DNA of 42,843 nucleotides from Dehalococcoidia bacterium (GCA_030745285.1 JASLOV010000063.1:1-42843), one strand, 5' to 3'; shown: positions 6,391-35,961, counted from the first letter of the stretch. Numbers and translations are program-made. The notes: generated by a model not told the origin, from the sequence alone.

Positions 6391-6407
6391 CCCGCGGTCG
6401 GGGCGTT

Positions 6408-7223: not shown

Positions 7224-7267
7224 CCTCGTGGGCTTGGGCGAGCGTCATCGACCCGCTCGTTCGTGCC

Positions 7268-8587: not shown

Positions 8588-8761
8588 TTCGAAGGTGGGG
8601 AAGTGGCGAATGGCTCGTCGGATCACGTGTAGCAGTCTGCGGGTTGCCCGGTCGCAGTGGGCAGCCCTCGATCGTAGCGCCTCGTGCCGAGCCGCGCCAG
8701 TGCTCGGCGGCGTCGGCTCGTGCGCTTCTGACGAATCGGGTGTGAGGGAGGGAGGAGCGTA

Positions 8762-12224: not shown

Positions 12225-12530
12225 TCACGCGCGCCGGCTCAGCCACATGTTCACGTCGAAGGCGTTGAGGTCGGCGAAGCGCATCATCTCGGCCACGGCG
12301 ACGATGGCGTCGGTCGCCGTGGCGTCCGGTGTCAGCGGCGCTGGATGCTGTCCGGTCTGTTCGGCGCGATCGGCGTAGAGTCTGACGGCCGCCGTCACGG
12401 CGCGCGCGAGGTCGTCGTCGGACGGGATGGCGGTGTCGGCGCGACGTCGCGATTCGTCAGCCAGGCTCACGAACGCGTCTACGACCTGGGCGGCCGCCTG
12501 CTCGTGGCCGGGGTCATGCGTGGTTGCCAT
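12225..12530 (-). CDS. Small acidic hypothetical protein (101 aa), no recognisable domain
   Basis: Internal ATG of ORF 12225..12800, giving MATTHDPGHEQAAAQVVDAFVSLADES...FDVNMWLSRRA. GC3 is high in this frame. It lies between the Rieske and LigJ-like genes on the same strand. The longer ORF would overlap the Rieske gene. Confidence 0.45.
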   Translation of the reverse strand: MATTHDPGHEQAAAQVVDAFVSLADESRRRADTAIPSDDDLARAVTAAVRLYADRAEQTGQHPAPLTPDATATDAIVAVAEMMRFADLNAFDVNMWLSRRA

Positions 12531-12559
12531 GGGCACCTGTCTTCTTGGAATCTGGTGAG

Positions 12560-12949
12560 CTAGCGCGCCGCGCCACTCGTGCGCGGCAGGGTGATGAAGA
12601 CGTCGTTCCCGTCGGTCCGCACCTTGACCGGCCGCAGCCGGTACGTCGAGACGACAACGTGCTGGCCGGTCCGGATGTCGAACTCGAAGCCATGCCACGG
12701 ACAGATGATGTTCAGCTGGTCTTTCGAGAAGACGCGTCCCGCGCTCTTCCCGCCCTCCCCGACGTCCTCGAGGACGAGCGGGAGCATCTTCCCCTGACAC
12801 GCCGGGCCACCCAGATGCGGGCAGCGGTTCTCGTAGGCGTAGAACTCGCCGTCGAGCCGGAAGACGCCGATCTGGACGCCAGCGACGTCGACGACCCGCC
12901 GTCCTGGATCCTCGAAGCTGGAGGTGGCGCCGATCTTGACCTCAGGCAT
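12560..12949 (-). CDS. Rieske [2Fe-2S] domain protein (small ferredoxin/NirD-like)
   Basis: CPHLGGP ... CPWHGFEF gives the CxH...CxxH ligands. The start at 12949 (MPEVKIGATSSFEDPG) overlaps the upstream stop by 8 nt (CCAGATGCCTGA), suggesting translational coupling. The ligand spacer is unusually long at 37 residues. Confidence 0.8.
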   Translation of the reverse strand: MPEVKIGATSSFEDPGRRVVDVAGVQIGVFRLDGEFYAYENRCPHLGGPACQGKMLPLVLEDVGEGGKSAGRVFSKDQLNIICPWHGFEFDIRTGQHVVVSTYRLRPVKVRTDGNDVFITLPRTSGAAR

Positions 12950-21215: not shown

Positions 21216-21388
21216 CGAGGTTCATCGCCGCGTGCTCAGCGCGCATCAGGCTCCCGATCTCGACGGCCTGATCCTGAAGGGTTCGATGACCCTGCCCATG
21301 CCTGTTCGGCTCCTCCGAGTCGCACCGGCGAACTCACTTCACCGTGATCTGGACCACCACGGAGGGGTAGAATTGGCGCGTGCCGCCG

Positions 21389-21408
21389 GGTATGAGCGTG
21401 GTCATACC
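21389..21408. promoter_or_regulatory. Inverted repeat GGTATGA-N6-TCATACC upstream of the ferredoxin/AOR operon (candidate operator)
   Basis: Read directly: GGTATGA at 21389-21395 and TCATACC at 21402-21408. It lies 35 nt before the GTG start at 21443 and about 16 nt downstream of a TAGAAT -10-like hexamer (21368-21373). Confidence 0.3.
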
Positions 21409-21442
21409 TTGGGCCCGGGTCGGCACTTATAAGGAAGACGTA

Positions 21443-21958
21443 GTGATTCAGTGCGATATCGGGCTCTGTGTCGGGTGCAGGATCTGCGAGGTGACCTGCA
21501 GTGCCGCGCACTTCGGTGCGGTCCTGCCAGCGCTCTCGCGCATCCGCGTCGCCAAGCTGGAAGAGATCGGCATCGACATGGCGGTCGCGTGCATCAGTTG
21601 CGCCGAGAAGCCCTGCCTCGTCTGTCCGACCGACGCGCTGGCGGTCGGGGAGCGGGGAGAGATCGTGCTCTCCGCCGAGTTGTGCACCGCGTGTCAGGAG
21701 TGCACCGACGCATGTCCGGTCGGCGCGGTCGGATTCTACGAGGACCATCCGCTCTTCTGCGATCTCTGTGACGGCGATGTCTCGTGCGTCTCGACGTGCC
21801 CGACCGACGCGCTGTCCTACGTGGACGAGTGCGGCGCGTCGCTGGAGGCATTTGCCGAGTCCGACGGGTGTCCGGCCGAGAAGCGCACCATCTACGTCGC
21901 GGTGCAGGGCGTGCCGATTCGTGAGAACTGGGCCGCCGGCCGGAGAGTCGATTCATGA
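21443..21958 (+). CDS. Polyferredoxin, 4x[4Fe-4S] (AorA/HybA-like electron-transfer subunit)
   Basis: Four Cys clusters: CVGCRICEVTC, CISCAEKPCLVCP, CTACQECTDACP and CDLCDGDVSCVSTCP. I prefer the GTG at 21443, which has AAGGAAG 6 nt upstream and gives (M)IQCDIGLCVGC. The ORF-track start at 21380 is the alternative. The stop overlaps the AOR start (ATGA). Confidence 0.8.
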   Translation: MIQCDIGLCVGCRICEVTCSAAHFGAVLPALSRIRVAKLEEIGIDMAVACISCAEKPCLVCPTDALAVGERGEIVLSAELCTACQECTDACPVGAVGFYEDHPLFCDLCDGDVSCVSTCPTDALSYVDECGASLEAFAESDGCPAEKRTIYVAVQGVPIRENWAAGRRVDS

Positions 21959-23751
21959 GCATCTGTCGCGGAACGGCTCTGCGCGTCGATCTCACGACCC
22001 AGGAGATCGTCAAGGGCGAGACTCCCGACGACGGCATCGGCGGACGGAGTTGGAACAGCCAGACACTCCTGCGCGAGTTGGCACCGGGCATCGATCCACT
22101 CGGTTCCGAGAACATCCTCTGCCTGTCGGTTGGCCCGTTGACGGGCAGCGAGTTGATCGGCAGCTGTCGCTTCATCGCGAGCGCGAAGAGCCCACTTACG
22201 GGCTTCCTGGGCGATTCCGGCGCGCGCGGCTTCTTCGCGCCCGAGCTGCGCTGGGCCGGAGTCGATCAGATCGTGCTCACGGGCGCGGCCGACCGATGGG
22301 TCTATCTGCTCATTGACGATGGCACGGCCGAGCTTCGAGACGCGTCGCATCTCGTCGGACGCGACATCACGGAGACGACCACCGACCTTCGTACCGAGTT
22401 GCACGACCCCGACCTGCAGGTGGCCGCCATCGGCCCCGCCGGAGAACACCTCGTCCGATACGCGATCATTTCCTGCAATCTGGCGCGTGCGGCCGGCCGG
22501 ACCGGCATGGGCGCCGTGATGGGGTCGAAGCGGCTGAAGGCGATCGCCGTTCGGGGCCGCCAGCCCGTGAAACCGGCCGATCCCGATCGGTTCCGGCGGG
22601 CCTGCGCGGCTCTCGCGGCGTCCATCGAGGGGCACCCCGAGTTCGAAGCCCGCCGACTGTACGGAACGACCCGGATCATGGACTCGCTGGCGGAGATGGG
22701 GGTGTTACCCGCGTATCATTTTCGCAGCGCCCACTTTGACGAGGTCGAGAAGGTCAACGGGCAGGCGCTGCGACGGGACCATGTCGTCAAGCCGAAGTCC
22801 TGCTACAACTGCAACATCTACTGCTCGCGGTACAACGTCACGGAGTACAACGAGGGTGAGGGCCCCGAGTACGAGGCGCAGGCCGGGTTCACCGTCAAGT
22901 GCGGGAACACCGACCTCGAGTTGGCCGTCGGCGTGTCGAATACGGTCAACCGGCTCGGGCTCGATTGCATCAGCACCGCCGAGGTCATCGCGTGGCTGAT
23001 GGAATGCCGCCACGAAGGGCTGATCACCGACGCGGACGTCGGCGGCATCGATCTCGGGTGGGGCTCGCGAGAAGCCCTGCTGCGACTGCCGGAGATGATC
23101 GCGCGGCGCGAAGGGATCGGAGACCTGCTCGCCGACGGCTCGCGACGCGCGGCCGAGGTCTTGGGGCCCGAGACCGCTAGACTGACCGCGGAGGTCAAGG
23201 GGCTCGAGCTGTTCTCAGCCGATCCGAGGGGGATCAAGGGGTACGGCCTGATGAACGCCGTGAACTCCCGGGGCGGCGACCACTACCGGGCGGAACCTTC
23301 GATCGAGTTGACGGGAGACGAAGCCCTCGCCATCCGACGGGTTGGCAATCCCGATGCGGCGCATGCCAAGAAGGAAGAGGGCAAGGGCGCGCTGGTCAAC
23401 TACGCCGAGCACCTGGGCATCCTCTCGGACAGCCTGACGATCTGCAAGAACATCTCGTGCTGCATGGACGTCGTCGACTTCGACCTCGCATCCGATGCCT
23501 ACTCCGGGCTCCTGGGCACGGAGGTGTCGGCAAGCCAGCTCTGGGACGTCTGCACCCAGGTCGGTCAGGCCGAGCGCGACTTCAACCTTCGAGAAGGGCT
23601 CCGACCGGACGACGACACGTTGCCGCGGCGCTTCGTGGAGTCCCCGATCCCCGATGGCCCGGCGGCGGGCACGACCATTGACATCGCGAGGCTGGTCAGC
23701 GATTACTACCGTGAGAAGGGATGGCCCGAGCCGCCACGAGGGGAGAGCTGA
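21955..23751 (+). CDS. aor: Aldehyde:ferredoxin oxidoreductase (AOR) family tungsto/molybdopterin enzyme
   Basis: The N-terminus TALRVDLTTQEI and AAGRTGMGAVMGSKRLKAIAVRG match the AFOR_N domain. CYNCNIYC (CxxCxxxC) plus a distal Cys in LTICKNISCC provide the [4Fe-4S] ligands. GPEYEA and SRGGDHYRAEP are pterin-binding motifs. Confidence 0.9.
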   Translation: MSICRGTALRVDLTTQEIVKGETPDDGIGGRSWNSQTLLRELAPGIDPLGSENILCLSVGPLTGSELIGSCRFIASAKSPLTGFLGDSGARGFFAPELRWAGVDQIVLTGAADRWVYLLIDDGTAELRDASHLVGRDITETTTDLRTELHDPDLQVAAIGPAGEHLVRYAIISCNLARAAGRTGMGAVMGSKRLKAIAVRGRQPVKPADPDRFRRACAALAASIEGHPEFEARRLYGTTRIMDSLAEMGVLPAYHFRSAHFDEVEKVNGQALRRDHVVKPKSCYNCNIYCSRYNVTEYNEGEGPEYEAQAGFTVKCGNTDLELAVGVSNTVNRLGLDCISTAEVIAWLMECRHEGLITDADVGGIDLGWGSREALLRLPEMIARREGIGDLLADGSRRAAEVLGPETARLTAEVKGLELFSADPRGIKGYGLMNAVNSRGGDHYRAEPSIELTGDEALAIRRVGNPDAAHAKKEEGKGALVNYAEHLGILSDSLTICKNISCCMDVVDFDLASDAYSGLLGTEVSASQLWDVCTQVGQAERDFNLREGLRPDDDTLPRRFVESPIPDGPAAGTTIDIARLVSDYYREKGWPEPPRGES

Positions 23752-24980
23752 TGAATGCACGAGAGCAGGATCGCAGGCGCTTCTTGAAGAGCGGCGCAGC
23801 GCTGGCCGGATTGGCGGTGGGCGGGACCCCGTCGGCATACGGCCAGCCGATGTCGAGAGATGTCTCCAGGATTCCTCCCTACGGCATGCGCTCGCGGTTC
23901 GAGACCTCGCACCGGGGTAGCGGGAGACTGCACTCGGGGCAGTCGCCGCTTCAAGATTCGGTGGGGATCATCACCCCGAACCCACTTCACTACGTGGTGA
24001 GTCATGGGGCCTGGTCGCCGGATATCGATCCGCAGGCACATCGTCTCCTGGTCGACGGCATGGTCGACCGTCCGCTGGTCTTCACGATGGACGAGTTGAA
24101 GCGCCTGCCGTCCGTCACGCGGACCCATTTCCTCATGTGCGCGGGCAGCAGCTACGTGACGCGCGGACCGAGGCGGAACGCGCGGACCGTTCAGGAGACC
24201 CACGGGTGGACGAGTTGCGCCGAATGGACCGGGGTGCCGCTCTCCATCGTGCTCGCTGAGGCGGGCGTGCAGGACAGGGCCAGCTGGGTCGTCGCGGAGG
24301 ACGTGACGCGGAAGTGGACGGTGAGCATCCCCCTGGCCAAGGCGATGGACGACACGGTGCTGGTCTACGGCCAGAACGGCGAGGCGATACGCCCCGAGCA
24401 GGGCTACCCGCTGCGGATGCTGGCCCCGGGCTTCGAGGGCACCCGTAGCACGAAGTGGTTGCGGCGAATCAAGGTCGTGGACGAGGCCTATCTCACCCGG
24501 TGGGAGATCACCGTCTACACGAACCTGATGCCGGACGGTAAGGCACGCTGGTTCCAGTTCGAGTTCGAACCGAATTCCGTGATCACCTTCCCGTCGGGCG
24601 AGCAACAGCTGCCGGGTCCAGGATTCTTCGAGATCACCGGCTTGGCGTGGTCCGGCGGCGGCGCCGTCCGCAGGGTGGAGGTGTCCGTCGACGGCGGTCG
24701 CACCTGGGCGGACGCGCAGATTCAGGACCCGGTGCATCGGATGGCACACACCCGGTTCCGGTTCCCTTGGCAGTGGCAGGGCGGCGAGGCGACGCTGCAG
24801 TCGCGCTGCACCGATGAGCGGGGGGACATCCAGCCATCGCTGGCCGAGTTGAACCAGATCTGGGGTGTGGACAACGAATACTGGACGACATCCACCAACC
24901 GGGTCCAGCACCTCAACGCCATTCAACCCTGGAAGGTCGATCGAGACGGGAGCGTTCGCAATGCGATATGGGAATCGTGA
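23751..24980 (+). CDS. Sulfite-oxidase-family molybdoenzyme, SoxC/SorA-like, Tat-exported
   Basis: The ATG at 23751 overlaps the AOR stop by 1 nt (TGATG). The Tat signal is MNAREQDRRRFLKSGAALAGLAVGG. LMCAGSS contains the Mo-ligand Cys. GYPLRMLAPGFEG is present, followed by a C-terminal dimerisation/Ig-like domain. Confidence 0.9.
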   Translation: MNAREQDRRRFLKSGAALAGLAVGGTPSAYGQPMSRDVSRIPPYGMRSRFETSHRGSGRLHSGQSPLQDSVGIITPNPLHYVVSHGAWSPDIDPQAHRLLVDGMVDRPLVFTMDELKRLPSVTRTHFLMCAGSSYVTRGPRRNARTVQETHGWTSCAEWTGVPLSIVLAEAGVQDRASWVVAEDVTRKWTVSIPLAKAMDDTVLVYGQNGEAIRPEQGYPLRMLAPGFEGTRSTKWLRRIKVVDEAYLTRWEITVYTNLMPDGKARWFQFEFEPNSVITFPSGEQQLPGPGFFEITGLAWSGGGAVRRVEVSVDGGRTWADAQIQDPVHRMAHTRFRFPWQWQGGEATLQSRCTDERGDIQPSLAELNQIWGVDNEYWTTSTNRVQHLNAIQPWKVDRDGSVRNAIWES

Positions 24981-25653
24981 CGTGATCGTGCCACTCGCCG
25001 TTGTGATGACCCTGGCCGCCAGCTCCGCGCTGGCGCAGGGACCCGCGTATGGACTGGGCAGGGCGCCCACAGCCGACGAGGTCAGTGCCTGGGGGATCAT
25101 CGTCGGTCCCTCCGGACAGGATCTGCCACCGGGGAGCGGCACCGCCGAGGACGGCGCGAGCATCTACGGCGCGAAGTGCGCCTACTGCCACGGTCCGACC
25201 GGTGCGGAGCCGTACATGTCTCGGAGACGAGAGCGGCCGTTCACGCCGGAGATGTACTGTTGCTTCCCGGCGCCACTGGTGGGAGGCGAGTCCTCGCTCA
25301 CGACCCTCATTCCCGTGAAGACCGTCGGAGCCTACTGGGCCTCGGCGACGACGCTGTGGGACTACATCGCGCGAGGGATGCCCCCGAACGAGAACTACCG
25401 GAACACGAGAGGGGGCTACGAGTTCGCCGAGCGAGTCAATGCGCAGGGCCCGCTCAGCGACGACGACGTCTACGCGCTCACGGCGTTCATCCTGTTTCAG
25501 AACGGCCTCGTCCAGGAGCGCGACGTCATGAACGCCGAGAGTCTGCCGAACGTCAAGATGCCTGGCCGTGACGTGATGATCCCCGCCGACCCGAACACGT
25601 GGTATCCGAAGCGGCAGGTCGATCCGCACGTCAGCCCGAACTCGCGGCCGTAG
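24961..25653 (+). CDS. Monohaem cytochrome c, SoxD/SorB-like partner subunit
   Basis: ATG at 24961 inside ORF 24865..25653. The signal peptide is MRYGNRDVIVPLAVVMTLAASSALAQG. The haem motif is CAYCH. KTVGAYWASATTLWDYIARGMP and DDDVYALTAFILFQNGLV resemble SoxD. It overlaps the upstream gene by 20 nt. Confidence 0.85.
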   Translation: MRYGNRDVIVPLAVVMTLAASSALAQGPAYGLGRAPTADEVSAWGIIVGPSGQDLPPGSGTAEDGASIYGAKCAYCHGPTGAEPYMSRRRERPFTPEMYCCFPAPLVGGESSLTTLIPVKTVGAYWASATTLWDYIARGMPPNENYRNTRGGYEFAERVNAQGPLSDDDVYALTAFILFQNGLVQERDVMNAESLPNVKMPGRDVMIPADPNTWYPKRQVDPHVSPNSRP

Positions 25654-25677
25654 CCGTCGGCCCTCGTCGCGTGCCGC

Positions 25678-28311
25678 TCAGGCGCCTTGCGCCGGGCCGG
25701 CCGACTCGGGACTCGGATGCGCCGCGGTCCTGGGCACGACGGTTGACGCGGGCAGTCTCAGGAATCGCTCGAGCACGCGCTGGAGATCCGGCACACGGAG
25801 CGGCTTGGAGAGGTAGTCGTCCATGCCGGCTTCCAGACACCCATCGCGATCGCCGGCCATGGCGTTCGCCGTCAGCGCCACGATCGGCGTGTGGATGCCA
25901 GGGGCCTCCTGCCGACGAATCTCGGCCGTGGCCTGAAACCCGTCCATTTCCGGCATCTGGCAGTCCATGAGCACGACGTCGTACGTCCGCGCGCTGAGCG
26001 CGTCCACCGCGTCCCGGCCGTTCGCGACGACGTCGGCACGATAGCCCAGCCGTTCGAGCGTGAGCACGATCACCTTCTGGTTGACGACGTTGTCCTCTGC
26101 CACCAGGATGCGGGACTTCGCCTGGGATTCGTGTTCAGCGAGATCGTGGCGCGTTACGAGCGGCGCGTCCGGGGTCGTCGTGACCTGCGCCAGCACGGTC
26201 TGGACGCACGCGAGGAGCTGGCGGCGCCTGACCGGCTTCGTCAAGTAGCCGGCGAATCCGGCCGCCCGGGCCTCGGCCGCCTGTCCGCGCTGCCCGCTGG
26301 AGGTCAGCAGAATGAGCGCACCGTTGGCGAACGCCGGCGCCTGGCGGAGCCGGCGTCCCAGCTCGAGGCCATCCATGCCGGGCATCATCATGTCGAGGAC
26401 CGCGATCGGATAGGCGACGCCGGCCTCGTGTGCGGCGGCCAGGTGAGCGAGCGCCGCCTCGCCTCCGATCTGGGCTTCGACCTGCATTCCGGCCGCGCCC
26501 AACTGCTGGGTGAGCAGCGTTCGATTCGTCGCGTTGTCGTCGACGACGAGGACGCGTACGCCCGCCAAGGCGGAGAGATCGACCGGCGCAGGGGCGGCGG
26601 TGCTCTCGGCCTTGGCCAGGCGCACGGTGAACCAGAACGTGCTGCCTTGTCCCTCGGCGCTCTCGACGCCGATGGTGCCGCCCATGAGCTCGACCAACTG
26701 CTTCGAGATGGCCAGGCCCAATCCGGTGCCGCCGTACTTCCGCGTCGTCGAGCCGTCGGCCTGCGAGAACGGCTGGAACAGCCGCGGCTGTGCCTCGGCC
26801 GGAATTCCGCATCCCGTGTCACGCACCTCCACGCGCAGGATGGCCGCGTCGGCCGAGTCGTCGTGCCGCGTCGCGCGCACGACGACCTCACCCTCGGCCG
26901 TGAACTTGACGGCGTTGCCCACGAGGTTCATGAGCACCTGCCGCAACCGGCCGGGATCGCCCGTCACCGTCACGGCGATGTTCGGATCGATGAGTGCCGT
27001 GAGCTCGACGCCCTTGTCGTGCGCGCGCGCCGCCAGCAGCTCGACGACGTCCTCGACCGTCGTGCGAAGATCGAACTCCCGCGACTCGATCGTGAGGCGA
27101 CCCGCCTCGATCTTCGAGAAGTCCAGGACGTCGTTGATGATCGTGAGCAGCGCTTCACCCGAGCCGCGGACGGTCTCGGCGTAGTCGCGCTGCTCGCGGT
27201 TGAGCGATGTTTCGAGCAGCAGGTCGGTCATACCGATGATCCCATTCATCGGCGTCCGGATCTCGTGGCTCATCATGGCGAGGAAGGCGCTCTTCGCCTG
27301 GGTCGCCTGTCGCAGCGCCTCCCGTTCGCGGAGCGTTTCGATCTGCTTCGTGTGGGCCCGCTCCACGGCCAGCCGCGCCATCAAGATCAGCAAGACCGAG
27401 ACGATCGTCAGCGCGGCGGACAGGTCGCGGAACCCGTCCAGCACGTCGGGCAACGGCAGCGCCGAGCGCAGCGCGTAGTCGAGGACGGGAATGAGGCCGA
27501 GCGCCGCGAAGATCAGCCAGGGGCGAGAGGCGGTCGTCGCCTCGTCCTCACCGGGCGCCGGATCCGCCGCCGTGGCCGGGGCGTCGTAGGCGGCCCACGC
27601 GTAGAAGAAGAACGGCAGGATCCAGGTGACGTCGTAGACGAAGACGCTGCGATAGACGCCCTGCCAGATGTCGATGTAGCTGATGGTCGACGTGACGAAG
27701 TAGACCAGGAGGCCGAACGCGAGGCGCCGGTAGGTCGACTCCCAGCGCGTGCCCCGCGTCGCGACCATGATGCCGGCCATGCCCGCCACGGCCAGCAGTT
27801 GCTGCAACTCTGAGAGCCACAGCAGCGACAACGACGCGCGATCCACGCTGTCCGGCGCGGCGACCAGGCTGGTGACGACGTGCGAGTAGAGGAAGCCGAC
27901 GAGCACGGCCAGTCCGGCGATGTCGACGGCCGTGGTGGGCGCCGCGGCGTCGCGGCTCCCGCGATGGGGCTGCGCGAGGAGCGCCAGCAGCGGCGTCGCG
28001 CCGCCGAAGAGCGCGAAGACCGCATGCCAGCCCAGCCAGGAAGTTTCGCGGGCAAGCAGAAACTCGTCGAGCGTCCAGCCGATAAGTCCAATGGAGGAGA
28101 CGGCGAGGCCGAAGGCGATCGTGGCCCAGAAGAGCCAATGACACCCGGACCACTCCCGGCGCCGATGGGCGATCACACCGATGCCCAGCAGCGGCGGGAC
28201 CAGCAGCGTGCCGCATCGGAACCAGAGCAGGGCGGCCGGGAGATCTCGGAGGAGCCAACCCACCGTCAGGTAGACGAGCGAGTAGGCGGCTCCCGCCGCA
28301 AGCCAGAGCAT
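25678..28311 (-). CDS. Hybrid sensor histidine kinase: polytopic membrane N-terminus, HisKA, HATPase_c, REC, REC
   Basis: There are about 8 hydrophobic helices in the first 300 aa. The H-box is [23 protein letters not shown]. The ATPase boxes are [16 protein letters not shown] and [11 protein letters not shown]. Receiver 1 contains LVVDDNATN...[12 protein letters not shown]...YLTKP. Receiver 2 contains LVAEDNVVN...[12 protein letters not shown]...LTANA...YLSKP. Confidence 0.9.
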
Positions 28312-28497
28312 TCACCAGGATTGTCGACCGGATCGCGCGAGGAAGACAGCAGATTGAGAGGCATCCTTGCACCGGATTCGCAGCATCCTGACAGCAGCTG
28401 ACACCAGCGGACAGAAGCGTTGGTGAGCGACGGCGTGTTCGAGGCCAGCGTCCGAACGTCGTATCATGACGTCCGAACCACGAGCCAGGGGGAAGCG

Positions 28498-28983
28498 GTG
28501 AGCGAACAAGACGACTCGGGCGAGGCCAGGCGCCTGGCCGACGAGGCGATGGCGCAGATTGCGGAGGTGGCGTCGCGGCCGCCACCGCCTCCGGCGGCCG
28601 AGGTGCGCGCTGGGACGAGACGGCGTGTGGCGCTCATCGGATTGGCCGTCGGTGTACCGACGCTTGCGTTCCTGCTGGTGCAGGATTTCGCCGTCGGCGG
28701 CGTACGGGCGTTGCTCCAGCCGCGCCTCCCCGAGGCCGAGCTTCGCCTGCAGATACTGAGCACGGTCAACGACCTCGTCATCGAGATCGATGCGTTCTAC
28801 GAGGACTACGGTGAGTTGCCCGAGAGCCTCGTGGAGGTGGCCTCGCCGTCTGCCGCCGGGTGGCGTTACACGCTCGTCGGGCGCGACAGGTATCGCGTCG
28901 AGCTCACGCAGGATGGGCAGTCGGTGACCTACGACTCGGCGGACGACGCCGACGAAGTGTTCGAGGAGGTACGGCAGCCATGA
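28498..28983 (+). CDS. Hypothetical single-pass membrane protein, Pro-rich N-terminus, translationally coupled to the prepilin gene
   Basis: Part of ORF 28420..28983, whose track start is a TTG. I favour the GTG at 28498 (GGGGGAAG upstream) or the ATG at 28549. The one TM helix is RRVALIGLAVGVPTLAFLLV. The stop overlaps the pilin ATG (ATGA at 28980-28983). Confidence 0.5.
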   Translation: MSEQDDSGEARRLADEAMAQIAEVASRPPPPPAAEVRAGTRRRVALIGLAVGVPTLAFLLVQDFAVGGVRALLQPRLPEAELRLQILSTVNDLVIEIDAFYEDYGELPESLVEVASPSAAGWRYTLVGRDRYRVELTQDGQSVTYDSADDADEVFEEVRQP

Positions 28984-29531
28984 CCGGTAGGAATCCTCGT
29001 CCGGCGCGGAGTGATCTCGGGTTCACGCTGATCGAACTGATGCTGGTTGTCACGATCATCGGCATCGTCGCGGCGATCGCGATTCCGGCCCTCGGCCGGG
29101 CGCGGATCGCGTCGTTCGAAACGGCGGCGATAGGAGCACTGCGGACATTGGGCAGCGCGCAGTCGGCCTTTGCGGCTTCCTGTAGCGGTGGCTACTTCGC
29201 GCCGTCCCTCGTCTGGCTGGGGCGTGCGCCCGCCGGTGGGGATGCATTCGTCCAGCCCGATCTGGTGGGGAACGGGCGACGCGTGGATCGGCAAGCCTAC
29301 CAGCTGCGATTCGCGGCCGGCCGGCGAGCCCGGAGCAGCCCGGCGGCGTGCAACGGGCTGCGGCCGGGCCGTGCCGTCGAGAGCTACTTTGTCGGCGCCA
29401 ACCCGCGGAACCGCCGGGAAGGTGCGAGGTACTTCGGGACCAACTCGAGCGGCACGATCTACCAGAGCACGCGCCGCGTACGGGTCACGCAGATGGGCGT
29501 GCCGCGGGCACCCGCCCGACCGATTCAGTAG
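28980..29531 (+). CDS. Type IV pilin / pseudopilin with prepilin-type N-terminal cleavage/methylation motif
   Basis: The leader MTGRNPRPARSDLG|FTLIELMLVVTIIGIVAAIAIP shows G|F cleavage and Glu+5. AAIGALRTLGSAQSAFA is typical of PilA-like pilins. Two Cys residues (ASCSGG, AACNG) could form a disulfide loop. Confidence 0.85.
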   Translation: MTGRNPRPARSDLGFTLIELMLVVTIIGIVAAIAIPALGRARIASFETAAIGALRTLGSAQSAFAASCSGGYFAPSLVWLGRAPAGGDAFVQPDLVGNGRRVDRQAYQLRFAAGRRARSSPAACNGLRPGRAVESYFVGANPRNRREGARYFGTNSSGTIYQSTRRVRVTQMGVPRAPARPIQ

Positions 29532-29549
29532 CGGCGCTGCAGGTGTGAC

Positions 29550-29918
29550 CTAGGAGGGTAACTTGGCCAGGAGCTGCCCGAGTTCGGTGACCTGCCGCTC
29601 GAGGTCCGCGTAGGCCTGCTCGGCCCTCGACAGGTCGGTGGCCCGACCGAACGATTCGAGCCGACGCGCCGTCTCGTAGGCGCCGTCCGTACCGAAGATG
29701 CCGACCGACCCCTTCAGGATGTGGGAGGTCCGGGCCACGGCCCCGGCATCCCGCCGCTCGACCGCGTCACGCACCGCCGAGAGCTGTGACGGGTAGGCTT
29801 GCAGAAACGCCTCACCGACCTGGCCCAACATCTCCGCGTCACCATCGAATCGGTCGATCAGCACGTCCATCGGCGTCTTCGCCTCTGTCGCGTGTTTCGT
29901 TCGACCCTGTCGGCCCAT
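29550..29918 (-). CDS. Stand-alone histidine phosphotransfer (Hpt) protein
   Basis: ARTSHILKGSVGIFG is the HxxKG phospho-His motif. DRFDGDAEMLGQVGEAFL is the usual Hpt N-terminal helix. The start is at ATG 29918 (122 aa) or ATG 29870 (106 aa). The longer track ORF (to 30095) is Arg-rich and unlikely to be coding. Confidence 0.8.
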   Translation of the reverse strand: MGRQGRTKHATEAKTPMDVLIDRFDGDAEMLGQVGEAFLQAYPSQLSAVRDAVERRDAGAVARTSHILKGSVGIFGTDGAYETARRLESFGRATDLSRAEQAYADLERQVTELGQLLAKLPS

Positions 29919-30111
29919 CAGGTGTGCCCGCTTCGTTCGGGCCACACACCCACCTGTCAAAGCAGGAACGGTGCCAGTGCGGCCCCGGCGACGATCGACG
30001 AAAGAACCAATGCTAGCAACTGTTTCGGTCACTGTTCTTCTTGGCTTGAGTACGGGAGCGGGCGGAAGCGCACACAAGCGGGCGCCCCGACGCACAGGTG
30101 TGCGCTCGGTC

Positions 30112-32280
30112 TCAGCCCCGCGCCCGACGGAGGGCCGCCTTGGCGCGCGCCAGGAACCGCCGGGGCTCGATCGGCTTCCGGATGTAGTCGTCGGCGCCGC
30201 GATCGATCAGCTGAGTCTCGGCGTCCGGGTCGGGGCTGCTCGTGAACACGATGATCGGCAGCCCCGCGGTTCCGACGGTCGCGCGGGCCCGCGCGAGGAC
30301 GCCCCAGCCATCCAGCCGCGGCATCTCGAGGTCCAAGATCATCAGCGAGTAGACCTCCTGCTCGAGGGCCAGGAGGGCGGTGACGCCATCGGCCGCCTCC
30401 GACACCTGGCAGCCTTCCCGTTCGAGTAGCGCCTTCGCGAACGTCCGATTCGTCGGGTCGTCGTCGACGACGAGGATGCGTGCGCCGTCCAGGGACGCCG
30501 TCGGAAGTCCAGCCGCCGAACTGGTCGTCGGATCGGCCGCGCGCGAGATCAGTTCCGTGGTCGATGACAGCCCGGCGTCGACGGGCTCCGTGCCCGGGCC
30601 GCCGACGACCCGCTCGATCTCTCCGAGCGTCGTCAGGCACTGCTGCTCCATGGCCAGGCCGACCTGGCGCAGCGTTCGCATCCCTTCCTTGACCGCCGCG
30701 GCTTCGAGATCGGTTGCGGTCGCCCCCGAGGCGATCAGCGTCTGGAGCGCCGGACTCATCATCAGGGTTTCGACGACGGGAAGTCGGCCGACGAACCCGG
30801 TGCCGTCGCACTGGTCGCACCCGGATACCCGCATCGTCGCGGTGACGCCAAAGAGTTGGCCGAGCCGTTGCTCGTCGTTCGAGAGGTCCCCGACAATCCG
30901 GACGCCGCACGTGGCGCAGACACGCCGGATCAGCCGCTGGGCCACGACGCCACGCACCGTGTCCACGAGCGCCGAGGGGTCGAGGCCCAGGTCGACCAGC
31001 CGGCGGACGGCGCTCGCGGCGTCGTTCGTATGCACCGTGGCCAGCACCAGGTGGCCCGTCAGACTCGCCTGGACGGCGATCTCCGCGGTCTCGGCGTCCC
31101 GGATCTCACCGACGAGGATGATGTCCGGATCCTGTCGGAGGATCGCGCGCAGCGCCGAGGCGAACGTCACGCCCTGCTTCGGGGCGACCTGCATCTGCGT
31201 CGCCGCGGGCAGCTCGTACTCGATCGGATCCTCCACTGTCATGATGTTGACGTCCTCGGTGGCCAGCTCCCACAACGCGGCGTAGAGCGTCGTCGTCTTG
31301 CCCGATCCGGTGGGGCCGGTGACGAGGATGATGCCCTGTCGTTCCTTCAAGAGCGTCCGGAGGCGCTCGAGCTCCGGGTCGGCAAGTCCCAGCGTGTCGA
31401 GGCGCGCTGAGGACGTCGGATCGAGGAGGCGGATGACGGCCTTCTCGGACCCGCGCGTCGGCACGGTGGAGATCCGCATGTCGAAGACGCGGTTGGCGAT
31501 CGCGAGGCTCGTCCGCCCATCGTGCGGTTTCAGGCGGTTCGACAGGTCGATATCGCTGAGCACCTTGATCCGGGACACGACCCGGTCCATGACCGGCAAC
31601 GGCAGCTGCATGTAGTGACTGAGCACGCCGTCGATCCTGAATCGAACGACACCGCCGCCTGCGCCGGGCTGGATGTGAATGTCGCTGGCTCGGCGCGCGA
31701 CGGCATCCCGGAAAATGAGGTTCGTCAGCTTGATGACGGGGCCGCCCTCGACCTCATCGGCCGTGACCTGGGCGGGGCCCTGGTCATCCACGTCACTGAC
31801 GAGCGTCTCGAGATCCTCGTCGACGTGGGCGAGCAGCGTCTCGACGGCGCGGTCGGGCGAGTACCGTGACTCGATGATCTTCGAGAGCGCCGCGGGCGGC
31901 GCGACCGCCATCACGGGCTTGCGACCCGACGCGAACGCGATGGCTTGCTCGGTGTCGAGGTTCAGCGGGTCGGCGCTCGCGACGTGCAGGTTGCGGTCGT
32001 CCTCACGAAGTGGGAAGACCTGGAACTGCTGGACGACGCTGCTCGGCAGGAGCCGCGTGGCAGCCGAACGCGCCGCCTCGAGATTGGCGACCTCGAGGTT
32101 GAGTGCGGTGGCAATCGACTCAGCCAGATCGGTCTGCGAGACGCCGCAGTGCCGTGAGACGGCGGTCCAGGCGTCGGCTGCCGGCGTCTTCGGTTCGACC
32201 GCCAGATGCTCCGCGTCCTGGAGTCGGGCGGTACGGGCGGCGCGAACGAGCCAGTGGACCGGTTCGGATTGGGGAGCCAT
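30112..32280 (-). CDS. PilB/GspE-class type IV pilus / type II secretion assembly ATPase fused to a C-terminal response-regulator receiver domain
   Basis: - GSPII_E N-domain: LLPSSVVQQFQVFPLREDDRNLHVASADPLN.
- Walker A: GPTGSGKTTT.
- Walker B/Asp box: DPDIILVGEIRD.
- His box: TGHLVLATVHTNDA.
- Tetracysteine: CATCG...GCDQCDGTG.
- Ser/Thr/Pro linker.
- REC (about 30115-30486): ILVVDDDPTN, LMILDLEMPRLDG, IIVFTSS, DYIRKP. Confidence 0.9.
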   Translation of the reverse strand: MAPQSEPVHWLVRAARTARLQDAEHLAVEPKTPAADAWTAVSRHCGVSQTDLAESIATALNLEVANLEAARSAATRLLPSSVVQQFQVFPLREDDRNLHVASADPLNLDTEQAIAFASGRKPVMAVAPPAALSKIIESRYSPDRAVETLLAHVDEDLETLVSDVDDQGPAQVTADEVEGGPVIKLTNLIFRDAVARRASDIHIQPGAGGGVVRFRIDGVLSHYMQLPLPVMDRVVSRIKVLSDIDLSNRLKPHDGRTSLAIANRVFDMRISTVPTRGSEKAVIRLLDPTSSARLDTLGLADPELERLRTLLKERQGIILVTGPTGSGKTTTLYAALWELATEDVNIMTVEDPIEYELPAATQMQVAPKQGVTFASALRAILRQDPDIILVGEIRDAETAEIAVQASLTGHLVLATVHTNDAASAVRRLVDLGLDPSALVDTVRGVVAQRLIRRVCATCGVRIVGDLSNDEQRLGQLFGVTATMRVSGCDQCDGTGFVGRLPVVETLMMSPALQTLIASGATATDLEAAAVKEGMRTLRQVGLAMEQQCLTTLGEIERVVGGPGTEPVDAGLSSTTELISRAADPTTSSAAGLPTASLDGARILVVDDDPTNRTFAKALLEREGCQVSEAADGVTALLALEQEVYSLMILDLEMPRLDGWGVLARARATVGTAGLPIIVFTSSPDPDAETQLIDRGADDYIRKPIEPRRFLARAKAALRRARG

Positions 32281-32304
32281 GAGGCGCTGAGGGAGTCTCG
32301 TCAG

Positions 32305-32874
32305 CTAGCCCTTGGTGTAGGCCGTCCGGTTCGACGATGACGGGCCGCCGAGTACGCCGCTGAGAGTCGTTTCGACCACGAGCGACGGCGGGCTCGCCAA
32401 CCGGGTTGAGGGTTCGAACGAGAGTTTCCGTTTCACCTCGCTCGTCAGCGGCTGGCCGTCGTCAGGGTCGGGGAAGCTGTGGAGCGTCGTGATCACCAGC
32501 GTGTCACCTTCCCAGGCTGTCCACGAGACTTGCTCCTGGATCCCGCGGCCCATCATGACCGTGTGCTGCGTCTCGGTCCCGTCCAGCGGGTAGGTAAACT
32601 CGAGCGGCGGCTGCAGGTCGCCTCGCGAGAAGAAGACGTACTCGACGGTGAGCGTGTCGGCGTCCTGCGCGATCGTGATCGTCGACCCCCAGCCGCTGCC
32701 CATCGTGCCCGTCGGCGCGCCCCGGCCGCCGGGTGTCGGCCTCGCCTCGGCCGCCGCGGTCCAGTGTCCGGAGAAGTCGGGTCGCTCCTGCGCCGCGGTG
32801 CCGGTTGCCAGCAGGCCGGCCACGGCGGCCGCCACGATGCACGTCAATCTCGGTGATCTCGATCCTGCCTTCAT
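32305..32874 (-). CDS. Secreted hypothetical protein (small beta-rich, lipocalin-like pattern)
   Basis: The signal peptide is MKAGSRSPRLTCIVAAAVAGLLATGTAAQ. It is followed by DFSGHWT and alternating beta-like segments. It lies 24 nt upstream of the ATPase gene on the same strand. I recognised no catalytic motif. Confidence 0.6.
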   Translation of the reverse strand: MKAGSRSPRLTCIVAAAVAGLLATGTAAQERPDFSGHWTAAAEARPTPGGRGAPTGTMGSGWGSTITIAQDADTLTVEYVFFSRGDLQPPLEFTYPLDGTETQHTVMMGRGIQEQVSWTAWEGDTLVITTLHSFPDPDDGQPLTSEVKRKLSFEPSTRLASPPSLVVETTLSGVLGGPSSSNRTAYTKG

Positions 32875-32909
32875 TCGCTCTCTCCTCGTGCACCCGCTGT
32901 GCGCCGCAC

Positions 32910-34355
32910 CTACCGCGTGCCGCCCGGTGGGACGTACGGGTCGTCGGCGCCGGCCGGCACGTTGGGGTACAGGTCGGTCGACGCCATGAACTCGGCCACG
33001 ATTCGATCAGCCACACTCTTCACCCACGGGTTGGCGTCCTTGACGTCCGATTCCTCCTTCGGATCGGATCGCAGGTTGAACAGCCGCATCGTCGACGTCG
33101 GGTTCGGATCGCCCGGCTCCGGCCGGAACGCGTACCAGAACTTCCAGTCCTTCCATTTGACCGCGAGCACCCGGCCCCCCATGGCCATGAAGATGACGCT
33201 GTCACGGTTCGAGTGTGCCTGCTGGCCTTCGAGGAACGCGAGCTGATTCACGCCGTCGATCGCGCGGTCGGTCGGCACGATCTCCGGCGCCCCGACCGCG
33301 GCGGCCAGCGTCGGGAAGAAGTCGACCTGATGGACGATCTCGTTCGACACCTGCCCCGCGGGGATCCGGGCGGGCCAGCGGATGACGCACGGCGTCCGGA
33401 TGCCGCCTTCCATCGCCGAGTTGTAGAACCCGTTCCAGGGCCCGGCCGAGCCGCGCCAGGGCCGCCGCCGCTCCGCGCCGTTGTCGGTGCACCAGAAGAC
33501 GATCGTGTTCTCCGCGATATCCAGGCGGTCGATCGCGTCGAGCACGAGCCCGACGTTGTGGTCGACGTCCGCCATCGCGTCGCCGATGTCGCCCGCGCCG
33601 GTCGCGCCGGCGAAGTCGGGATGCGCCAGGGTGGGGAAGTGGATCTGGGTCATCGGATAGAAGAAGAAGAATGGGCGGTCGGCGTCGATCTGCCGCTCCA
33701 TGAAGTCGATGCCGCGCTCGGCGGCCTCGCGGTCGAGCGTTCGCCGCGTCTCCATGTCGAATGGTTTCAGCTTCCGCGGCCGTTCACCGGCCCGACCCTC
33801 CCAGATGTAGGGCGTCTCCATCGTGGCCGGATCCCAGGTGTCGAAGGTCGTGAACTGCGAGGTGTGGCTCGTGCCCGGGATGCCGTACCACTCGTCGAAG
33901 CCCTGGTCGGTCGGCTCGCGCCGCCCCTCCCAAGTGTTGTCACCGCCGACGTGCCACTTGCCGAACAGTCCGGTCGCATAGCCCACCGACTGCAACGCCT
34001 CCGGGAGGGTGACCTCCCACAGCGTCATCCCGCTCCGCTGGGTCGCGCCGGCGCGCACGGCGTAGCGCCCGGTAAGCAGCGCCGTCCGGGAGACGGTGCA
34101 CGAGTACTCGACAATGAAGTTCGTCAGCCGGATCCCCTCGGCGGCGATCTGGTCGATCCGGGGCGTCGGCACACCACGGACGCTGCCGTAGGCCCCCACC
34201 TCGCCCCAGCCCAGGTTGTCGGGGAACATCAGGACGATGTTCGGCCGCTCGGGCGCGGTGTCCTGCGCGGCGACCGGCGCCGCGGCCCCGGTGAGGCCGA
34301 GTCCGGCGAGGAGCCAGCACGCGATGAACCGACGTGGTCTCCTGAGCATCTCCAT
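32910..34355 (-). CDS. Arylsulfatase-family (formylglycine-dependent sulfatase) enzyme, secreted
   Basis: The signal is MEMLRRPRRFIACWLLAGLGLTGAAAPVAAQ. Motifs are NIVLMFPDNLGWGEVG, active-site SCTVSRTALLTGRY, GKWHVGG and WCTDNGA. Confidence 0.9.
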   Translation of the reverse strand: MEMLRRPRRFIACWLLAGLGLTGAAAPVAAQDTAPERPNIVLMFPDNLGWGEVGAYGSVRGVPTPRIDQIAAEGIRLTNFIVEYSCTVSRTALLTGRYAVRAGATQRSGMTLWEVTLPEALQSVGYATGLFGKWHVGGDNTWEGRREPTDQGFDEWYGIPGTSHTSQFTTFDTWDPATMETPYIWEGRAGERPRKLKPFDMETRRTLDREAAERGIDFMERQIDADRPFFFFYPMTQIHFPTLAHPDFAGATGAGDIGDAMADVDHNVGLVLDAIDRLDIAENTIVFWCTDNGAERRRPWRGSAGPWNGFYNSAMEGGIRTPCVIRWPARIPAGQVSNEIVHQVDFFPTLAAAVGAPEIVPTDRAIDGVNQLAFLEGQQAHSNRDSVIFMAMGGRVLAVKWKDWKFWYAFRPEPGDPNPTSTMRLFNLRSDPKEESDVKDANPWVKSVADRIVAEFMASTDLYPNVPAGADDPYVPPGGTR

Positions 34356-34379
34356 CCTCCGTGGTCTTGCGCGGTGGCG

Positions 34380-35837
34380 CTAGTCGCTGGTGCCCCTGAC
34401 GTTCGCGATCAGATCGTCGAGTGTGACGATCGGGCCGTGAATCGGCGCGATCCGGTCGACCCGCAGGCCCAGCCGCTCGATGTTCTCGAGGAGGTTGGCG
34501 GCAAACGGCTGCAGATCGCGGCCCGGACTGTACGCGTCGGCCTCCACGAGCAACCGCGCCTCGGGGAAGTACGCCATCAGGAGCGAATCGGCGTGCGGGC
34601 TGCCCGGGATGTGATGGAGGTGCACCGTCATCGACGCATCTTCCAGGGTCCTCTCGTCACCGACCGTCTCGAGCGTCAGCTCCTGCGGATTCCGACTGAG
34701 CGCATCGGGCGCAATCGTTCGTTCCCGGTCGACCAGCGCTCGATAGAACGGGCCGTTCGCCTCGTGCGTGATGATGGTGAGCCCTTCCGAGACCGCCGCG
34801 CGTATCCCGCCGGAATGGTCGAAGTGGTGGTGCGAGTTCACCAACTGCGTTAGCGGCTTGTCCGGCACGAGTTCCCGGGCCCTGGCAATCACGGCGAGGG
34901 TCCGGGCTTCGTTCGGCGCCTCGAAGAGCATGAGGTGATCGTCGAACTCCACGAGGACGCTATGGTGGGACTGTCCACCCAACAGCCAGATGCCGTCCGC
35001 CAGCTCCTCCGTGACGACGTTGACCGGTGGCGGGCCAGCCGGCGGATCCGCCGACGCCGCGCCGGCCGGCGCGGCGAGGTCGCCGACATCCCCGTTGACA
35101 CTCTGTGCCGTCACGTTGACGTCGGTCGTCGGATTGCCGGCGGTCGATGTCGTCAGGCGCGTCGGCAGCATCAACCCAGCGGCCTCCTGGTAGCCCGCAA
35201 ACGTGGTCTCGACGGTGACGTCGCCCAGATTGGCGTTGTGCGCCATTGACGTGACGCGGCTGGGCAGCCCGGACTCGGCGTCGATCGCCAGCGTGAACGC
35301 GGCACCGCCGGCGGTCGTCACGTCGACGAACGCCTCGCCCGCGGTCGTCCCGGCGTTCGCGAGCGTCGACGCGGGATCCAGCGCCGCATGCACGCTCGTG
35401 ATCGGGTGGTGATAGACCTCGGCGAGTCGATCGCGCGCGGCGCCGCTCGCAATCCGCGTCGCGGTGCCGTCGGGCGCGACATCGTAGCCGACGTCGCCAT
35501 CGACGCCGAAGATCTGCGGCTGGGGATCCGGGCCGCGGAAGTAGGTGAAGGCGGGCGTGCGCGTCCGCTCGATGCGGGATCGCCCCTCCGCCAGGTCGAC
35601 GCGCTGGCTGTAGCCGCTGACGATGTATTGCTGCCCGGTGGCGTCAGGGGTCATGTCCTGGCCCAGGTTCCCGGTTGTGCCGTCGCCCTCGATCGCGAGC
35701 GTCGTGACGCCCTCGACGAGATCGCGGCCGCCGAGCGCCGCCGCGGCATCCGCGACGACCTGCTGTTCCGGGGTGAGCTGCGTGCAGCCAGTCAGGGCGG
35801 CGATGACGAATAGGGTGATCCAGGGGCCTCGACTCAT
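34380..35837 (-). CDS. Metallo-beta-lactamase-fold hydrolase lipoprotein with a large N-terminal domain
   Basis: ATG at 35837 with GAGGAG upstream. The lipobox is FVIAALTGC. The HxHxDH motif is NSHHHFDHSGG, with later His and Asp residues (HLHHIPGSPHADS). Confidence 0.85.
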   Translation of the reverse strand: MSRGPWITLFVIAALTGCTQLTPEQQVVADAAAALGGRDLVEGVTTLAIEGDGTTGNLGQDMTPDATGQQYIVSGYSQRVDLAEGRSRIERTRTPAFTYFRGPDPQPQIFGVDGDVGYDVAPDGTATRIASGAARDRLAEVYHHPITSVHAALDPASTLANAGTTAGEAFVDVTTAGGAAFTLAIDAESGLPSRVTSMAHNANLGDVTVETTFAGYQEAAGLMLPTRLTTSTAGNPTTDVNVTAQSVNGDVGDLAAPAGAASADPPAGPPPVNVVTEELADGIWLLGGQSHHSVLVEFDDHLMLFEAPNEARTLAVIARARELVPDKPLTQLVNSHHHFDHSGGIRAAVSEGLTIITHEANGPFYRALVDRERTIAPDALSRNPQELTLETVGDERTLEDASMTVHLHHIPGSPHADSLLMAYFPEARLLVEADAYSPGRDLQPFAANLLENIERLGLRVDRIAPIHGPIVTLDDLIANVRGTSD

Positions 35838-35961
35838 GATCGTTCTCCTCTTCGTGGCCACTTGCATTGGAATGTGAGGCCGAAGCATACCAGGGACCGA
35901 CGGTCGGTGTCTCCACGGCCCGCGAGTTGTGGGGGCGCGTCGCAGCGTCTACCATGAGGCC

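Follow-up and report, generated by a model that had tools for sequence, protein, structure and literature searches.

It is still not settled how type IV pilus motors are turned on and off. The recognised inputs, namely c-di-GMP, PilZ/FimX and free CheY-like proteins, use diffusible partners, and it is difficult to establish where these touch the motor. Here, we describe a locus at positions 25678-32280 of a 42.8-kb stretch of DNA (GCA_030745285.1 JASLOV010000063.1:1-42843; the whole stretch of 42,843 nucleotides is referred to as the window). Its five genes encode a hybrid histidine kinase, a stand-alone histidine phosphotransfer (Hpt) protein, a prepilin, a membrane protein of a new family, which we call U, and a PilB/GspE-class filament assembly ATPase with a C-terminal receiver (REC) domain, referred to as PilB-REC. 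We consider it probable, if by no means certain, that together these genes make up a single module, with a multistep phosphorelay whose end point is the filament-assembly ATPase.

The closest described systems act on the motor in trans. In the Tax1 system of Synechocystis (PixJ-PixL-PixG/PixH), His-Asp phosphotransfer controls the pilus extension ATPase post-translationally, and only phosphorylated PixG binds PilB1 (PMC11181946). However, the PatA-type receiver of this system is a protein of its own, the CheA-like kinase is combined with an MCP-type photoreceptor, and the pathway includes neither a fusion nor a stand-alone Hpt leading to the motor. In Xanthomonas campestris, the tandem-REC orphan DrdR binds PilB as well as PilT and raises their ATPase activity (PMC13507683). 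DrdR can be seen as doing in trans what we propose for this locus in cis, but it is unfused, has no Hpt and no known cognate kinase, and acts on both the extension and the retraction motor. The Pil-Chp system of Pseudomonas aeruginosa (PilJ-ChpA-PilG/PilH) likewise steers type IV pili through a multi-Hpt phosphorelay to CheY-like receivers (PMC12632253, PMC11656802). In contrast to the locus described here, it is chemosensory (MCP, CheW and the CheA-type ChpA), uses free single-domain regulators and directs part of its output through cAMP/Vfr-dependent transcription; the annotated genes of the window include no CheA-type kinase, CheW or MCP gene, and its sole kinase is of the HisKA type. MshE and other MshEN ATPases resemble PilB-REC in that a regulatory domain is covalently attached to a PilB/GspE-class ATPase, and the N-terminal fold (PF05157) is shared. 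The input of MshE, though, is a nucleotide ligand at the N-terminus, whereas PilB-REC has a phospho-receiver at the C-terminus and lacks the c-di-GMP motifs (see below).

With respect to signalling logic, the locus resembles the unorthodox and hybrid relays ArcB, BarA/GacS, TorS-TorR, LuxQ-LuxU-LuxO and RcsC-RcsD-RcsB, in which the phosphoryl group passes along an H1-D1-H2-D2 route, and its Hpt stands alone as LuxU does. While these relays end on DNA-binding regulators, the only non-kinase receiver encoded in cis here sits on a secretion-superfamily ATPase. PilS, a polytopic membrane sensor, forms with PilR a two-component system dedicated to type IV pili. PilS-PilR, however, is a transcriptional, sigma-54-dependent two-step system, whose genes follow PilB-PilT-PilC in our control loci, whereas the window has no sigma-54 activator and every receiver in it sits on the kinase or the ATPase. 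Finally, a receiver-fold domain also occurs within the Tad pilus assembly apparatus, on CpaE/TadZ. That domain is atypical and non-phosphorylatable, is carried by a ParA/MinD-like protein and serves localisation, in contrast to the canonical receiver on the motor described here.

Full-text literature searches gave no description of a receiver-fused PilB. The paper that defined MshEN lists REC among the domains co-occurring with MshEN and does not discuss a receiver-fused ATPase (PMC5013675), and a 2024 review of PilB regulation makes no mention of a receiver fusion. The architecture is visible in annotation, for example in the Joint Genome Institute (JGI) protein name 'GspE/PulE/PilB-like protein/CheY-like'. 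An earlier reading of this DNA, made from the sequence alone and here called the sequence-only reading, had not recognised a phosphorelay wired covalently to an extension ATPase as a described system, and no paper describing one emerged from our search either. The locus combines a familiar machine with a familiar signalling logic; the combination has not been described so far, and the partner family U is new.

Organisation of the locus

The sequence-only reading had placed five parts at 25678-32280. Pfam domain content and the JGI gene calls on the same contig, which give the identical five genes, agree with this placement. Each gene has a high third-position G+C signal (G+C is 65-70% across the whole window), and the same contig was assembled independently from two samples. 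The region is arranged as follows:

25678..28311, minus strand: hybrid histidine kinase, 877 aa, H1 and putative D1 (Pfam HisKA, HATPase_c, two Response_reg)
28312..28419, no strand: divergent intergenic region of 108 bp between the kinase gene and the U-pilin pair (from the sequence)
28420..28983, plus strand: U protein (orf187), 187 aa, bitopic, founding member of an unannotated family
28980..29531, plus strand: prepilin, 183 aa (N_methyl 4e-07; TIGR02532 above cutoff)
29550..29918, minus strand: stand-alone Hpt, 122 aa, H2 (Pfam Hpt 6.5e-10; JGI gene call; HILKGS)
30112..32280, minus strand: PilB/GspE-class type IV filament ATPase with C-terminal receiver, 722 aa, motor and D2 (Pfam)

A census of all open reading frames (ORFs) in the window yielded three receivers, two on the kinase and one on the ATPase, together with one kinase core, one Hpt, one PilB-like ATPase and one prepilin motif. 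The same scan of the 42.8 kb found no DNA-binding response regulator, as had been noted before; the remaining genes of the window are metabolic or transport genes. A consensus scan of 25400-32600, the 108-bp intergenic region included, gave neither a sigma-70-like promoter nor an intrinsic terminator, which is uninformative for a non-proteobacterial genome of 68% GC.

The assembly ATPase carries a canonical receiver

PilB-REC consists of four parts:

31849..32097, minus strand: N-terminal T2SSE_N/MshEN-fold domain, aa 62-144 (Pfam PF05157, 5e-16)
30610..31749, minus strand: T2SSE ATPase core, aa 178-557, with Walker A K328, Asp box, Walker B/E392, His box and CxxC...CxxC (Pfam, 2.5e-119)
30496..30594, minus strand: disordered tether rich in A, P, S and T, aa 563-595 (AlphaFold2 pLDDT 31-41)
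30142..30477, minus strand: canonical receiver, aa 602-713, with D650 at 30331-30333 and a PhoB-like beta5-alpha5 region, GADDYIRKP... (Pfam Response_reg, 4.6e-25)

The Walker A motif reads GPTGSGKTT, and Walker B/E392 is intact. In an alignment of 40 diverse family members with 50-69% identity to the window ATPase, all extension-ATPase motifs (Walker A, Asp box, Walker B/Glu and His box) are invariant, and so are the zinc-motif cysteines C455, C458, C488 and C491. Such a tetracysteine zinc motif is typical of extension ATPases and is not found in PilT. The receiver is equally conserved: D606, D607, D650, T680, Y699 and K702 are invariant in the 40 sequences, as is the GADDYIRKP...R motif within the PhoB-like beta5-alpha5 stretch GADDYIRKPIEPRRFLARAKAALRR. 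Judged from these residues, the receiver is of the canonical, phosphorylatable type rather than a pseudo-receiver, in line with the sequence-only reading of a PilB/GspE-class ATPase with a canonical C-terminal receiver. The AlphaFold2 (AF2) model has a confidently folded ATPase core, an N-terminal domain with pLDDT >90 and a receiver of (beta-alpha)5 fold, also with pLDDT >90. Between ATPase and receiver, the 40 relatives have a segment of 18 to 138 aa rich in A, P and E. The best match of the ATPase in the Protein Data Bank (PDB) is Geobacter PilB (5tsg, 352 bits), with type IVa PilB/PilF ahead of GspE, and the nearest solved receivers are those of PleD, RpaA, PhoP and MtrA; no solved structure among the PDB matches has an ATPase-receiver fusion.

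Receiver-fold domains may also act independently of phosphorylation. Atypical receivers are known in Tad systems, and pseudo-receivers are reportedly common, so that the domain on PilB-REC might serve localisation or oligomerisation as in CpaE/TadZ, with the relay genes linked to it by co-regulation only. The invariance of the DD, D, T and K residues and of the aromatic switch in 40 diverse members is, however, not the pattern of a pseudo-receiver, and we regard this explanation as very improbable. The conserved residues include those reported to distinguish terminal receivers, which are allosteric and dimerise, from intermediary ones, namely a T/Y switch pair and conserved beta5/alpha5 ionic residues (PMC9981736).

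The receiver fusion is genuine. Among the best 120 relatives from a database of 5.8 billion proteins, all 120 have the order MshEN-T2SSE-Response_reg, and a frameshift, which the sequence-only reading had named as a way in which the fusion could prove false, or an assembly artefact was rejected on this ground and because the contig was obtained from two samples. Far from being peculiar to the window, the fusion is the standard architecture in a large family. Where named, the relatives belong to Gemmatimonadota (Gemmatimonadales, Longimicrobiales), with at least one labelled Acidobacteriota.

We also considered control by c-di-GMP through the N-terminal domain. The binding motif is defined as two tandem 24-residue stretches of the form RLGxx(L/V/I)(L/V/I)xxG...LxxxLxxQ (PMC5013675). 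A relaxed 24-residue version of it matched 0 of the 40 PilB-REC family members, while at least one motif was found in 23 of 70 ordinary PilB N-termini, and this kind of control was rejected. In one locus (L009:6235-7125, plus strand), 3 kb upstream of PilB-REC, a 297-aa protein is encoded that lacks the ATPase core and has the PilB MshEN-fold N-terminal domain joined straight to a receiver. The protein resembles PilB-REC minus the motor, a hint at cooperation between these two domains.

Relay genes accumulate next to receiver-fused ATPases

The sequence-only reading had named, as a test, whether Hpt and hybrid kinase genes are enriched near genes for receiver-fused ATPases. We compared 38 receiver-fused PilB loci with 54 ordinary PilB/GspE loci, in which there was room for a receiver and none was present. 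The loci were scanned with profile models for Hpt and U and with single-sequence phmmer queries for the kinase core, the receivers and PilC, within a radius of about 10 kb (4.5 kb for U). An Hpt domain occurred near the ATPase in 14/38 PilB-REC loci compared to 1/54 ordinary loci (p = 8e-6), and a hybrid kinase in 15/38 compared to 1/54 (p = 3e-6), so that the proposal passes this test. The U family showed the same pattern (12/38 compared to 0/54, p = 8e-6). Conversely, PilC was near only 3/38 PilB-REC genes but near 35/54 ordinary ones (p = 2.5e-8), the ordinary loci having the orders PilB-PilT-PilC-PilS-PilR or GspE-GspF-pseudopilin.

In most of the 14 Hpt-positive loci, the Hpt domain directly adjoins the ATPase, and in 10 of them it lies at most 250 nt from the ATPase ORF. 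The Hpt gene overlaps the start of the ATPase gene in four of the loci (L085, L169, L170 and L172) and overlaps or abuts that gene in L007 and L168 as well. A kinase ending in REC-Hpt directly abuts the ATPase start in L086 and L171. In L003 (10001-12616, plus strand), the Hpt is fused to the N-terminus of the ATPase, giving an 871-aa protein of the order Hpt-MshEN-T2SSE-REC and, with it, a Rosetta-stone fusion. A CHASE8 hybrid kinase encoded nearby in L003 is itself Hpt-terminated.

All five parts form one co-directional operon, hybrid kinase - Hpt - PilB-REC - U - pilin, in L169 and L170, and four of them are joined in one operon in L172 (REC - U - pilin - Hpt - PilB-REC); L168 has the order PilB-REC - Hpt - hybrid kinase. 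In L084, which encodes the closest PilB-REC relative (68% identity), the Hpt is parted from the ATPase only by an inserted insertion sequence (IS) element. This IS consists of two transposase ORFs, and in place of one kinase gene L084 has separate ORFs for the sensor (247 aa) and the kinase (642 aa). With these features, which lie at 6403-9013 and 12345-13483, L084 may be a decaying copy of the module. In a neighbour-joining tree, the window falls into a clade of eight, of which 8/8 have an Hpt nearby, and the linkage recurs on four other branches.

Together, the enrichment of Hpt and kinase genes, the L003 fusion and the L169/L170 operons support the proposed kinase-Hpt-ATPase-receiver phosphorelay as one module. 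The module is real and conserved, and it is probably functional. A chance neighbourhood of unrelated genes, or an artefact of assembly or frameshift, can be given practically no credence and is already refuted by the recovery of the contig from two samples, the 120/120 fused relatives, the conserved synteny and the enrichment statistics.

The hybrid kinase and the Hpt protein as putative upstream relay steps

The kinase gene encodes the following domains:

27352..28311, minus strand: polytopic membrane sensor module, aa 1-~320 (hydropathy; no known family)
27100..27297, minus strand: HisKA domain, aa 339-404, with phospho-accepting H349 at 27265-27267 (Pfam; H-box SHEIRTP)
26614..26961, minus strand: HATPase_c catalytic domain, aa 451-566 (Pfam)
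26197..26556, minus strand: receiver 1, with D640 at 26392-26394 (DD, D, S and K complete)
25774..26109, minus strand: receiver 2, aa 735-846, with D783 at 25963-25965, of the LMDxQMPxMDG type (Pfam and residues)

With a HisKA histidine (H349; HisKA 5e-22) next to a HATPase_c domain (5e-34), the protein has the features of H1. Both fused receivers (two Response_reg matches, 4e-49) keep the acidic pocket, the Asp, the Thr/Ser and the Lys expected of D1, and receiver 2 with D783 is the likely D1. The nearest NCBIfam models are hybrid kinases of the BarA/TorS/ArcB/LuxQ type, all below cutoff.

Kinase residues 1-330 matched no Pfam family, and hydropathy indicates 8-10 hydrophobic segments joined by very short loops. 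The description of the protein as a hybrid kinase with two complete receivers and an uncharacterised polytopic sensor of about eight transmembrane helices is thus upheld. The sensor family is small (213 clusters among 1.84e9 representatives); the module formed the N-terminus of a histidine kinase in all ten full-length members scanned, eight of them hybrid and nine with a PAS domain downstream of the module. Next to PilB-REC, it was seen in the window and in L084 only, where the kinase is an ortholog of the window kinase (71% identity, same sensor) and adjoins the closest PilB-REC relative. The kinases of the other relatives have CHASE8/HAMP or (multi-)PAS inputs; the input sensor is therefore interchangeable among relatives, while the output is conserved. 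Accordingly, the sensor module was rejected as the conserved signal input of the system and does not belong to the conserved core, of which it had been taken to be a part. A PilS-like role in pilin sensing is left as speculation because the module is not kept among relatives.

The Hpt protein has its catalytic histidine, H66 (29721-29723), within HILKGS and matches PF01627 (6.5e-10), the features of H2, and confirms the stand-alone Hpt gene seen in the sequence-only reading, with its size corrected. While the full ORF (29550-30095, minus strand) would encode 181 aa, the true gene is most likely 29550-29918 (122 aa). In L172 (8383-12181, plus strand), a 90-aa gene lies directly upstream of PilB-REC whose product had no precomputed Pfam match and matches the Hpt profile (E 6e-13, HALKSAS motif). 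Short Hpt proteins are likely under-counted by annotation-based surveys.

A new membrane protein family is paired with the prepilin

The two genes diverging from the kinase gene had been read as a two-gene prepilin operon. This applies to the second gene (28980-29531; 28860/28980-29531 in the Pfam scan), which has class III prepilin features (N_methyl, and TIGR02532 above cutoff) and the leader MTGRNPRPARSDLG / FTLIELML with G-1, F+1 and E+5 (...SDLG/FTLIELMLVV). It does not apply to the first (28420-28983), which encodes the bitopic U protein: U has no class III signal peptide or N_methyl motif and no match in Pfam, NCBIfam or a profile search of PDB sequences, and orf187 was rejected as a second prepilin. 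The U stop codon overlaps the pilin start by 4 nt (ATGA), and wherever U occurs (the window, L167, L169, L170 and L172), a prepilin follows directly with this 4-nt overlap. In L167, a homolog of the window pilin with 46.5% identity is paired with a U homolog.

U is the founder of a new family of bitopic proteins. A profile of locus-derived homologs detected 38 relatives, compared to two found by a single-sequence word-indexed search; all 38 are 'hypothetical', all stem from Gemmatimonadota, and none has a Pfam domain. In the neighbourhood comparison, the family occurred only beside PilB-REC, within 4.5 kb. In the AF2 model of U (pLDDT 76), a helix in the cytoplasm is accompanied by a long one that spans the membrane and by a second helix in the periplasm, which bears a near-invariant G-x-L-P motif; the fourth element is a three-stranded sheet. 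Foldseek returned no significant match to this model, the best plausible partial matches being small type IV pilins (E 0.4-1.1). With the profile searches of PDB and Pfam empty as well, U could not be identified as a pilin or as a GspL/M or PilN/O homolog. By analogy, its topology would fit a membrane adaptor between the cytoplasmic ATPase and the periplasmic pilin, comparable to GspL or PilN/O.

Upstream of the U-pilin pair of L167 lies a row of four genes (3523-8840, plus strand; 205, 183, 368 and 1008 aa). The first two products start with prepilin-like GFSLVE motifs, and the row resembles a minor-pilin/tip-protein set.

A proposed route from sensor to motor

The receiver on the ATPase output protein has the features of a D2, with an Hpt that is adjacent, overlapping or fused in relatives. 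We infer the following route. A signal, probably membrane-borne, would act on the polytopic sensor and lead to autophosphorylation of the kinase on H349. The phosphoryl group would then move to a kinase receiver, most likely to D783 of receiver 2, with D640 of receiver 1 as a modulator or an alternative, from there to H66 of the free Hpt, and on to D650 of the receiver tethered to the PilB-class ATPase. Phosphorylation of D650 is expected to flip the T680/Y699 switch and the PhoB-like alpha4-beta5-alpha5 face, whereupon the tethered receivers might pair between protomers, or release or engage the ATPase or its N-terminal domain. Such a change could gate the activity of the hexamer or its docking to the membrane machinery, and the outcome would be a controlled polymerisation of the co-encoded prepilin. 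In this scheme, U may serve as the membrane adaptor from the cytoplasmic motor to the pilin, in a role like that of GspL or PilN, and the PilC platform and any outer-membrane parts would have to be encoded elsewhere in the genome.

The conserved core of the system is Hpt, PilB-REC, U and pilin. As the set of PilB-REC, kinase, Hpt, pilin and U recurs across Gemmatimonadota, the data suggest that filament assembly is switched directly by phosphorylation. A motor with its own receiver and a dedicated Hpt is a simple genetic and biochemical case, in which D650 alone should control ATPase activity, oligomeric state or docking. In Gemmatimonadota, moreover, PilB usually takes the form of PilB-REC; this phylum is abundant in soil, and almost no surface-appendage biology has been described for it, and the list of response-regulator output domains gains a secretion-superfamily ATPase.

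Weighing the phosphorelay against other explanations

Several observations weigh against a relay that ends on a filament motor. In 24/38 PilB-REC loci there is no Hpt within 10 kb, and adjacency is therefore frequent, not obligatory. About 60% of the PilB-REC family are without relay genes (Hpt or kinase) nearby, which limits the sequence-only reading. Some PilB-REC genes stand isolated among metabolic genes (the L004 group and L173); all-against-all clustering of neighbour ORFs, which is confounded by conserved antisense ORFs in high-GC DNA, gave a syntenic group of L004, L005, L006, L008 and L013 without signalling genes. The sample of loci is of modest size and has some bias, L003 having been picked since its listing showed an Hpt; the Hpt model was seeded on sequences from the sampled loci, although it finds Hpt domains in unrelated loci too. 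Near the module, relatives often have additional receivers or regulators of the NtrC type (L003, L169, L172 and L086), which could be the main acceptors there. As for the machine, NCBIfam scores the ATPase at 492 bits for GspE (TIGR02533, cutoff 630) and at 464 bits for PilB (TIGR02538, cutoff 676), and the protein represents a distinct clade of the superfamily, neither orthodox PilB nor orthodox GspE. The best plausible fold matches of U are not significant (Foldseek E 0.4-1.1). Finally, PilC (all-ORF scan of the 42.8 kb), PilM-Q, PilD and PilT are absent from the window, so that the filament is putative.

The receivers and sigma-54 activators beside the module in L003, L169, L172 and L086, together with the 24/38 loci lacking a nearby Hpt, would also fit a different role of the ATPase receiver, namely that of a phosphate sink or side branch tuning the Hpt flux to an NtrC-type or single-domain regulator elsewhere; alternatively, the receiver could be fed by a different kinase, with the local kinase and Hpt serving another target. 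The window, however, offers no other acceptor within its 42.8 kb, many genomes have an Hpt that is part of the ATPase gene or translationally coupled to it, and the T/Y switch pair and the PhoB-like dimerisation face are invariant, which a mere sink need not keep. We therefore consider such a role decidedly unlikely and favour the ATPase as the terminal acceptor.

The relay could also operate as proposed on a machine that is not a surface pilus, be it a short periplasmic pseudopilus (type II secretion-like, or with another type IV filament function such as uptake) or an ATPase with a mainly signalling function. PilB of Myxococcus xanthus is a precedent for the latter, as it is reportedly a signalling protein with a proposed part in exopolysaccharide control. 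In addition, the GspE score is slightly above the PilB score (492 vs 464 bits, both below cutoff), each module has one pilin, and no secretin, PilMNOP or PilT gene was found near any of the 38 PilB-REC loci, with PilC near three only. On the other hand, type IVa PilB/PilF are the best solved relatives, ahead of GspE, and there is no GspH-K pseudopilin set here, while the control GspE loci show three to four pilin-like genes in a row. We deem this explanation unlikely as well.

In three loci of a sister clade (L011, L014 and L016), U-pilin-PilB-REC is convergent with U2-PilC and two more pilins. PilC, absent from the window as stated before, does adjoin PilB-REC in this clade, and the family can therefore sit in a real, compact filament cluster. 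An extended interpretation, possible though doubtful, is that U, prepilin and PilB-REC (with PilC) constitute a minimal type IV filament machine that is complete in itself, gated by phosphorylation and characteristic of Gemmatimonadota. U would then connect the motor to the pilin in place of the alignment proteins PilM/N/O or GspL/M, and the dedicated Hpt would switch the motor on or off within seconds. If true, this would be the first type IV filament with the assembly ATPase itself as a response regulator.

Neighbouring genes and origin of the contig

On one side, the kinase gene is adjoined by a redox cluster (21380-25653, plus strand) encoding a Fer4 ferredoxin, an aldehyde:ferredoxin oxidoreductase (AFOR), an Oxidored_molyb/Mo-co_dimer molybdopterin oxidoreductase and a cytochrome c; there is no evidence of a link to the module. 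On the other side, three genes (32305-35888, minus strand) encode a metallo-beta-lactamase-fold protein, a sulfatase and a 176-aa protein whose hydrophobic N-terminus resembles a signal peptide. They are not kept beside PilB-REC in other loci. In the window, they precede PilB-REC on its strand, separated by only 24-35 bp, and co-transcription may be possible.

The NCBI label for the protein of this contig is 'Dehalococcoidia bacterium'. Since the relatives of U, where named, belong to Gemmatimonadota/Longimicrobiales without exception, those of the ATPase do so with hardly any (one is Acidobacteriota), and G+C is 65-70%, the contig was probably mis-binned.

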